4,122 nucleotides of DNA from a virus (Duplodnaviria > Heunggongvirae > Uroviricota > Caudoviricetes), in the IMG/VR virus record IMGVR_UViG_2734482004_000012. One strand, written 5' to 3'. Below are positions 1-3,582 of the stretch, piece after piece. How positions within the stretch are numbered: the stretch's first letter is position 1; every line of letters begins with the position of its first letter. The notes beneath the pieces were generated by a model that was not told the DNA's origin, did no database searches, and was given only the letters and a program-made list of their open reading frames with translations. Position numbers and translations under genes: made by a program.

Positions 1-151
1 GTATTAAGCATGGATCATTAAGCCTGTCTCTGATAGGCTCATTCTGCTTTTGCGCAAAGCAGTGGGCCTGAGGTTTGCTTGTGATCCGGACGCATGAGCA
101 GATGGCTGGTGGGTGCCCCTAACACCCACCAGCCGCCCATTTACCACAAAT

Positions 152-359: not shown

Positions 360-480
360 GTCTTTTCCTTTTCCGGTTAACGTGACACACCAATAACTCT
401 TGTCGAAAAAGCCAGCAAGCTGAAAGACAGGTATTCACCGCCACCAGCGCGTTTACTGTACTGACGCGATTTCAGTCATA

Positions 481-501
481 AAAAACCCGCCAGGCGGCGG
501 G
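481..501 (-). terminator. tR'-like intrinsic terminator downstream of the late promoter
   Basis: Plus 486-491 cccgcc pairs with 496-501 ggcggg (loop aggc). On the minus strand this GC hairpin is followed by UUUUU (plus A-run 481-485). It sits about 60 nt downstream of the predicted PR' start, where a Q-dependent terminator is expected. Confidence 0.5.
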
Positions 502-538
502 GTGTAAAAAATCTTCTAACGTCAGGCATAAAACGCCC

Positions 539-578
539 ATCGTTAGAGCAAATTTACCACAGATTCGGGAAAAATCAA
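539..578 (-). promoter_or_regulatory. Late promoter PR'-like with sigma-dependent pause element (probable Q engagement site)
   Basis: Minus strand reads TTGATT (plus 573-578), 16-nt spacer, TAAATT (plus 551-556), TGCTCT, then AACGATGGG (plus 536-544). From memory this matches lambda PR' (GGGTAAATTTGACTCAACGATGGG) in the -10 hexamer, the spacing and the AACGAT pause-inducing element. Predicted +1 near plus 544. Starts about 40 nt after the Q stop codon (TAG at 584-586). Confidence 0.5.
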
Positions 579-583
579 CAACA

Positions 584-3159: not shown

Positions 3160-3186
3160 AAAAAACAAAACCCGCCGAAGCGGGTT
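3160..3186 (-). terminator. Rho-independent terminator ending the hok transcript
   Basis: Minus-strand RNA reads AACCCGC-UUCG-GCGGGUU followed by UUGUUUUUU (plus stem 3169-3175 / 3180-3186, loop 3176-3179, A-rich 3160-3168). UUCG tetraloop, GC-rich stem, U tract. Confidence 0.55.
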
Positions 3187-3189
3187 ACG

Positions 3190-3205
3190 TGCGGGTGCGT
3201 TGAGG
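3190..3205 (-). promoter_or_regulatory. 3' fold-back (fbi-like) element of the hok mRNA, complementary to the 5' leader element at 3568-3582
   Basis: Plus 3190-3205 tgcgggtgcgttgagg is the reverse complement of plus 3568-3582 cctcaagcacccgca apart from one extra g. It lies immediately upstream of the terminator hairpin. Confidence 0.45.
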
Positions 3206-3254
3206 ATGCCTGACACATCAGAGGTGGCGAGGGATTTCTCCCTCGCCGGGTCTC

Positions 3255-3410
3255 TTACTCCTCAGGTTCGTAAACTGTGAAGACAGCGACCTCCGTCTGG
3301 CCGGTTCGGATTCGTACCTCGCAGAGGTCTTTCCTCGTTACCAGTGCCGTCACTATGACGGTTAAACAGATGACGATCAGGGCGATTAACATCGCCTTTT
3401 GCTGCTTCAT
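3255..3410 (-). CDS. hokD: Hok/Gef family type I toxin (51 aa), HokD/RelF-like
   Basis: Product MKQQKAMLIALIVICLTVIVTALVTRKDLCEVRIRTGQTEVAVFTVYEPEE has the single transmembrane helix and the conserved RKDLCEV...TGQTEVAVF core of the Hok/Gef family. It is near-identical to HokD/RelF as I remember it. SD AAGGAG 9 nt upstream of the ATG at 3408-3410. Confidence 0.85.
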   Translation of the reverse strand: MKQQKAMLIALIVICLTVIVTALVTRKDLCEVRIRTGQTEVAVFTVYEPEE

Positions 3411-3467
3411 AGCCTGCTTCTCCTTGCCTTTCGGCACGTAAGAGGCTAACCTAGATTTGCCGTTCAT
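3255..3467 (-). CDS. Mok-like in-frame leader ORF (70 aa) overlapping hok
   Basis: ATG at 3465-3467 with GAGG 8 nt upstream. The N-terminal extension MNGKSRLASYVPKGKEKQA is in frame with Hok. It resembles the MokC extension (...KVKEKRAMKQHKAM...) as I recall it. In hok-family loci, Mok translation is what allows Hok translation. Confidence 0.5.
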   Translation of the reverse strand: MNGKSRLASYVPKGKEKQAMKQQKAMLIALIVICLTVIVTALVTRKDLCEVRIRTGQTEVAVFTVYEPEE

Positions 3468-3567
3468 AGATTGAGCCTCAGATTAATGTTAAGCGTCTTG
3501 CAGGACGCGTAATATTAACTGGGGCTTTTCTCTATCTGCCTTTGGTGTTCATGCCTGAGGCAGATAG

Positions 3568-3582
3568 CCTCAAGCACCCGCA
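3568..3582 (-). promoter_or_regulatory. 5' leader (tac-like) element of the hok mRNA, complementary to 3190-3205
   Basis: See the paired element at 3190-3205. It is followed in the transcript by a 9-bp hairpin (plus 3532-3540 ctatctgcc / 3559-3567 ggcagatag). Confidence 0.45.

Follow-up and report, generated by a model that had tools for sequence, protein, structure and literature searches.

Pausing of RNA polymerase at +16 of the phage lambda late promoter needs a -10-like element, a GGG at +7 to +9 and a downstream AT-rich segment (Bird, Strobel and Roberts, PMC5001585), the GGG serving sigma region 1.2 as a discriminator element (PMC5001585). The lambda Q protein binds a 13-bp site between the -35 and the -10 element (PMC9388147). 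For phage P22, the curated record (BK000583) annotates P late, a qut-like site, the 5' nucleotide of the RNA and t late, the last two being about 59 nt apart. In Stx1 and Stx2a phages, a constitutive late promoter that is terminated just past Q gives rise to a short RNA in lysogens, StxS (PMC7547250). A literature search for mapped transcripts or pauses at late promoters of the Qin/quuQ type found none.

The stretch of DNA that was analysed here (4,122 nt in full, hereafter the window) very probably carries, on its minus strand, the cassette that controls the late genes of an E. coli prophage of the lambdoid (Qin/Stx-like) kind; judged from its elements, this cassette would operate by textbook Q antitermination. 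Though uncharacterised, it is typical of the Q antitermination cassettes of the lambda family and as such holds little new biology; the comparison with its relatives, however, corrects the view of how long the leader of such a cassette normally is.

Genomic setting

All genes in the window lie on the minus strand. The segment encoding hokD and the sok RNA, a type I toxin-antitoxin system (3255-3579; HOK_GEF Pfam match on a 70-aa ORF, Rfam sok match of 113 bits), is followed by a DUF968/ydfU-like gene, which contains 10 consecutive N (2053-2062) and hence appears as two ORFs, by rusA, which is located between this gene and the Q gene, and by the Q antiterminator gene itself (1403-584; Pfam PF03589). 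The late promoter-pause-terminator cassette occupies 583-480. The first gene past the terminator is a 65-aa ORF annotated as hypothetical (359-162), which is followed by another terminator-like hairpin (175-158), and the window closes with the start of a DNA methylase gene (ATG at 11-9). No tRNA genes were found in the window; in a reference genome the methylase, tRNA-Ile/Arg/Arg, holin and lysozyme genes are located farther downstream. The whole is a late region of the Qin/Stx-phage type in an E. coli lambdoid prophage. The nearest relatives of the window are E. coli chromosomal prophages with 99.8% identity over 1.2 kb, and among 5,426 complete genomes of this species 3,067 match the window to some extent, 1,080 with at least 80% coverage. 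The cassette is present in some form in more than half of the complete E. coli genomes.

The only Pfam signal of the 65-aa protein is a sub-threshold TrmB/winged-helix match; the ORF is kept in SfV (orf47) and in Stx2 phages. The run of 10 N also marks the source of the window as a gapped draft. As a further observation, the segment at 3165-3246 (minus strand) gives a sub-threshold Rfam match to IsrK (27.8 bits at a cut-off of 50, E 0.003) and ends in a hairpin resembling a terminator (3186-3169), shortly before a small ORF. Known from Gifsy-1, the IsrK RNA originates from an antitermination-controlled promoter.

The late promoter and its pause element

An earlier note on this DNA had proposed a lambda-like late promoter with an AACGAT pause element. 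The sequence it had quoted, GTGGTAAATTTGCTCTAACGATGGGCG, is found exactly at 560-534 of the minus strand. The window contains the arrangement TAAATT-N6-AACGAT only once, on the minus strand at 539-556; if up to one mismatch is tolerated, the expected count is 0.01, and any match was obtained in 3 of 200 shuffled sequences. The corresponding lambda PR' segment, GGTAAATTTGACTCAACGATGGG (J02459; positions 774-796 of locus L002), agrees with the window in 19 of 23 bases, the -10 hexamer, the length of the 6-nt gap and AACGATGGG being identical. A search of the window for the lambda 23-mer at three or fewer mismatches returned no match because there are four, all of them located within the 6-nt gap, and the gapped pattern was used in its place.

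With +1 set at 544 by analogy with lambda, the remaining promoter elements (all on the minus strand) can be read from the sequence. The -10 hexamer TAAATT (551-556), which is the lambda one, is preceded by a 16-nt spacer, TTTCCCGAATCTGTGG (557-572), a candidate Q-binding element that includes an extended -10 TG at 559-558, and by a candidate -35 element, TTGATT (573-578), which is invariant in 36 distinct close relatives. The resulting promoter, TTGATT-16-TAAATT, scores 8 of 12, which is under the threshold of a simple promoter scan that made no call at this site. The promoter lies 5 nt past the stop codon of the lambda-family Q gene.

The sigma-dependent pause element (536-544) is composed of AACGAT at 544-539 (+1 to +6) and GGG at 538-536 (+7 to +9) and is identical to lambda +1 to +9. 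Together with the AT-rich segment GTTTTATG at 527-534 (+11 to +18), all three components described for the lambda pause (PMC5001585) are present in the window. By analogy, a pause is predicted at about +16/+17 (529/528), where U17-G18 would fit the pause consensus. Lambda also has a -35-like TTGACT upstream of its pause element, for which the window has only TTGCTC as an equivalent. Among the 36 distinct close relatives, the -35 element, most of the spacer, the -10 hexamer, A1, A2, A5, T6 and G7 to G9 are invariant, while positions +3 and +4 vary. This pattern of conservation, nAnnAT followed by GGG, fits that expected of a -10-like element and a discriminator recognised by sigma regions 2 and 1.2, respectively.

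Another common haplotype carries CGTCAT at -6 to -1 (IMG/VR loci L247-L366, n = 43), and its terminator is directly followed by tRNA genes. Seven pause alleles are present in this group (AACGAT, 20; AATGAT, 8; AATAAT, AACAAT and AACTAT, 4 each; AAAGAT, 2; GATGAT, 1), and positions +3, +4 and +11 hold about two thirds of the minor-allele counts across -45 to +65 (110 bp). The haplotype of the window itself is monomorphic at the pause element (38 of 39). It might be speculated that the allele variety in the CGTCAT haplotype reflects a tuning of pause strength or, alternatively, a CpG hot spot.

A second stretch resembling the promoter, TGTGGTAAATGGGCGG, is located at 133-148 (minus strand) and repeats TGTGGTAAAT of the promoter together with GGGCG of the pause region. 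The occurrence of TGTGGTAAAT at 148-139 was considered as the remnant of a duplicated PR' and rejected, as the same string is kept upstream of the methylase gene in phages with an unrelated Q. By its sequence, TGTGGTAAATGGGCGG could be a weak extended -10 promoter.

The terminator and the leader RNA

The intrinsic terminator, the equivalent of lambda tR', is located at 480-501 (minus strand) and consists of a CCCGCC/GGCGGG stem (501-486) with the loop GCCU and a tract of six T (485-480). The stem-loop folds with -12.6 kcal/mol (z = -2.5), and in the SfV record the homologue of this hairpin carries the annotation of a terminator. Counted from 544, the stem spans +44 to +59 and the U tract +60 to +65, which agrees with the distance of about 60 nt given in the earlier note and predicts an RNA of about 64-67 nt. 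The same reading applied to lambda (J02459; +1 at L002 788, end of the U tract at about 981) yields 194 nt, in line with the value of about 190 nt that the note had given for the 6S RNA. The possibility that the hairpin is a bidirectional terminator was rejected, since on the plus strand GTGTAAAAAATC comes after it.

Upstream of the terminator, the first 27 nt of the leader (518-544, minus strand) are predicted to form a 5'-terminal hairpin with an AACG/CGUU outer and a GGGCGU/AUGCCU inner helix (-8.6 kcal/mol, z = -2.2). It is connected to the terminator by an A/U-rich linker, AGAAGAUUUUUUACAC (502-517), which is unpaired and single-stranded in the fold; among relatives the composition of this linker is conserved and its sequence is not. 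The CGTT of the outer helix, which is complementary to the transcribed AACG, is aligned and invariant in seven phages, lambda, P22 and the Qin type among them. In the main class of relatives, 90% of the cells of the covariation analysis pair, the changes are one-sided only, and there is no excess over shuffled sequences. A few compensatory pairs are found in distant relatives (AACAA/TTGTT, AAGAATG/CATTCTT and AGAAT/ATTCT). However, when the partner is left free, shuffled controls often yield helices of 4-5 bp as well, 60% reaching at least 4 bp. A selected RNA structure at the 5' hairpin is thus unproven and is not claimed here.

Leader length among relatives

The earlier note had held that a transcript terminated so close to its start would be unusually short. 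This view did not survive a survey of relatives of the window Q from IMG/VR and from one genome per GTDB species, in which the pause element was located with a small nhmmer profile and the first downstream hairpin followed by a U tract was taken as the terminator. The procedure recovers lambda tR' (stem end at +185); it miscalled the terminator at locus L106, where the hairpin by eye ends near +54, and probably also at L142. Over 80 distinct leaders adjacent to Q genes of the lambda family, the median position of the stem end is +58 (interquartile range 50-59), and the window, at +58/59, belongs to the 71 in which the stem ends between +47 and +69. These same 71 of 80 show the order Q, promoter, AAnnATGG, about 50-65 nt and terminator, and the arrangement is kept across dozens of enterobacterial species. 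Longer leaders are rare and are found at L100 (+123), L118 (+101), L125 (+160) and in lambda. The short layout is also present in HK97, SfV, K-12 Qin, PHB10 and a Klebsiella phage. Even among 80 IMG/VR loci whose Q is about 100% identical to lambda Q, 36 have the long lambda-type leader and 36 the short one of the P22/HK97 type, and short leaders accompany an unrelated Q family as well (PF06530, in a Stx2a phage). Thus, as read from these sequences, the leader of about 65 nt is the normal form of the cassette and lambda the outlier: a leader of about 50-65 nt is the rule, and the 194-nt 6S leader of lambda the exception. For annotation, the arrangement of a -10 hexamer, 6 nt, AAnnATGGG, about 45 nt and a terminator just past a PF03589 gene provides a reliable marker of late-operon starts in enterobacterial prophages.

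The terminator also coincides with a boundary between exchangeable parts. Stx2a and Stx2d phages with a Q of the Q21 family (PF06530) have the terminator, the 65-aa ORF and the methylase gene in common with the window, and in a Stx2a phage with such a Q the terminator stem begins about 70 nt past the Q stop codon. Conversely, the phages Evi and mEp460 match the window in Q, promoter and terminator and diverge from about position 480 on. Because the Stx2a phage with a PF06530 Q carries the terminator, 65-aa ORF and methylase of the window, the terminator is a mosaic joint at which Q cassettes meet late regions.

The antiterminator gene and the promoter spacer

The earlier note had also expected a lambda-type Q and a lambda-type site to occur together. 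The Q part of this expectation is borne out, as a PF03589 protein is encoded 5 nt away, with matches on both fragments of the gene (E 1e-27 and 8e-16) and on the intact allele (E 2e-49). The expectation falls short in two respects: the spacer is not lambda-like, and the Q gene is split by a 2-bp deletion. The intact allele of ATCC 11775 (WP_000762880.1; L001 3798-4616) encodes 273 aa and matches the lambda Q structure PDB 7UBM with an E value of 2.3e-38, residues 1-113 and 182-273 aligning to lambda residues 1-113 and 116-207. The residues in between, 114-181 (window ~861-1064), form a 68-aa cysteine-rich insertion with two extra CxxC pairs, which is carried by the Q clade of the window and sits at the base of the zinc-ribbon DNA-binding 'arm' of lambda Q; its match to the DnaJ zinc finger (DnaJ_CXXCXGXG) is below threshold. 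The Qin/SfV clade has a shorter insertion, and the four zinc cysteines are invariant in the Q alignment.

The consensus of the promoter spacer is TTTTCCsGAAnyTGTG in the clade of the window, TTCAAAAAAnnTGG in that of Qin/SfV and TTGAATAAnnTTGGG in that of lambda/P22, and the Q-binding spacer sequence of lambda is absent from the window promoter. Since this consensus changes with the Q clade, as a cognate site would, the spacer is a candidate for the Q-binding element. Q would bind there, and it is likely that the clade-specific spacer sets the specificity. The 68-aa insertion may explain why the spacer differs.

Relative to the Q gene of ATCC 11775, the window lacks two base pairs (TA) between 1111 and 1110, which results in two frames, 1403-1092 (103 aa) and 1111-584 (175 aa). 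This deletion is absent from all 5,426 complete genomes of E. coli, where the best matches show 98.6% identity, the shortfall being the 2-nt gap. It represents an inactivating mutation restricted to this sequence or else an error of sequencing, the source evidently being a draft. As the sequence stands, Q in this copy is probably disabled. A real deletion would abolish antitermination in cis, and the promoter would give rise to the short RNA alone unless a compatible Q were supplied by another prophage.

Proposed mechanism and alternatives

The analysis shows sequence elements that equal those of lambda PR' at the key positions, the family to which Q belongs, the fold of the terminator and a layout conserved across many phages; from these we infer a start site, a pause, binding of Q to the spacer and readthrough. 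In this reading, the sigma70 promoter (TTGATT, 16 nt, TGgTAAATT) right after Q would be constitutively active with a start at about 544. The first transcribed bases, AACGAT and GGG, would act as a second '-10 plus discriminator' to which sigma70 binds again, and this re-binding would stall RNA polymerase at about +16/+17. Without Q, transcription would end at the hairpin and U6 at 501-480, and an RNA of about 65 nt would be released. Once Q has bound the promoter spacer and been loaded onto the polymerase at the pause, the terminators at 501-480 and 175-158 would be ignored, and transcription would extend through the 65-aa ORF and the methylase gene into the tRNA and lysis genes. Speaking against this textbook reading are the weak -35 element at a site that the simple promoter scan did not call, the missing lambda Q-binding sequence, TTGCTC in place of the -35-like TTGACT, and the frameshift in Q; the switch may be dead in cis.

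The last point leads to the alternative that the cassette is a fossil in a cryptic prophage, in which Q has been inactivated and promoter and terminator control nothing, even if the short RNA is perhaps still made. The 2-bp deletion that splits Q and is private to this sequence would be accounted for, and the neighbourhood (hokD/sok, ydfU and rusA) resembles that of the cryptic Qin prophage. However, the promoter, the pause element and the terminator have all remained intact and match exactly their counterparts beside undamaged Q genes in many genomes. As the window comes from a draft with a 10-N gap at 2053-2062, the deletion may also stem from a sequencing error, and another prophage could provide a compatible Q in trans. 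We regard a fossil as possible but, on balance, somewhat doubtful. That the similarity to lambda arose by chance, TAAATT-N6-AACGAT and the hairpin being unrelated to late-gene control, might be argued from the poor -35 element and from the generic promoter scan that missed the site. A pattern expected 0.01 times in the window that lies 5 nt past a lambda-family Q and is conserved in dozens of enterobacterial species leaves next to no probability for this explanation, which the comparative data already effectively refute.

A different kind of alternative assigns the function to the RNA. The leader of about 65 nt might be the selected product, a trans-acting sRNA of the Hfq type that is made constitutively in lysogens and resembles StxS. 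Its predicted architecture, a 5' hairpin, an A/U-rich linker, a GC hairpin and U6, would suit such a role, and there is a precedent in StxS, which is derived from PR'-tR' of Stx phages, such leaders having been suggested to evolve sRNA functions (PMC7547250). The linker is the sole candidate for a seed, though, and its sequence is not conserved among relatives; a search with the Rfam 15 covariance models over 480-544 matched no family at E values up to 1; and the pause element, acting at the DNA level, and the terminator account for the conservation. Such a role for the leader thus appears quite unlikely. Hardly more probable, and still improbable, is the broader proposal that the leader is more than a spacer, namely a stable regulatory RNA of StxS-like build (5' hairpin, linker and terminator), with the pause element serving as an evolutionary tuning knob through positions +3, +4 and +11 and the seven nAnnAT-GGG alleles.

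Comparison with known late-control regions

The antitermination reading preferred here places the cassette among several described late-control regions. The same layout is found in K-12 Qin (ydfT/quuQ) and SfV, where hokD, ydfU and Q also form the same neighbourhood. The leaders of Qin and SfV are homologous to that of the window, AACGATGGGC being followed by CGTT and by a CCCGCn4-loop terminator at +44 to +59, and SfV also has the 65-aa ORF. In K-12, the homologous Qin RNA is predicted at about 1,642,360-1,642,422 on the complementary strand of NC_000913.3, with its 5' end at 1,642,422 and its 3' end at about 1,642,361. The Qin/SfV Q is different: it has 250 aa and is only 43% identical to the window Q by alignment (38% by tblastn). 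Its promoter differs as well, with the spacer consensus noted above, TAAAAT or TAAGAT as the -10 hexamer and TTGCAT as the -35 element.

The StxS system of Stx1 and Stx2a phages (PMC7547250) is similar in arrangement, its late promoter being likewise terminated just past Q. StxS differs in length, with 258 nt that are processed to 74 nt, and goes along with a Q clade of 144 aa. Some Stx2 phages share terminator, 65-aa ORF and methylase with the window, and unlike it have a Q of the Q21 family (PF06530). The anti-sRNAs AgvB and AsxR are no PR' leaders, being located elsewhere, in the moron site.

In common with lambda PR'-qut-tR', the window has a PF03589 Q gene immediately before the promoter, an identical -10 hexamer, a gap of likewise 6 nt and AACGATGGG at +1 to +9, followed by an AT-rich stretch before the pause site, a CGTT complementary to the 5' end and an intrinsic terminator. 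In contrast to lambda, the window has its own -35 element, its own spacer with the extended -10 TG, and a Q with the 68-aa insertion; judged from the spacer, its Q-binding site presumably differs from that of lambda. The leader is about 65 nt rather than 194 nt in length, and past +9 only CGTT is similar. The cassette is no sequence homologue of the 6S RNA: neither similarity over the 194 nt of the lambda leader nor the long interrupted tR' hairpin was found, and the terminator of the window is unrelated and located 130 nt closer to the start.

P22 (BK000583) and HK97 combine features of both: like the window, they have a lambda-family Q (gene 23 in P22), AACGAT as the pause element and a short leader, while the Q is of the lambda type with 207 aa, the spacer is lambda-like, and the sequences of leader and terminator are not those of the window. 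In P22, the RNA 5' nucleotide is located at locus position 1402 and the terminator at 1432-1460, giving about 59 nt. Thus, the short form of the leader to which the window belongs was already documented in the P22 record.
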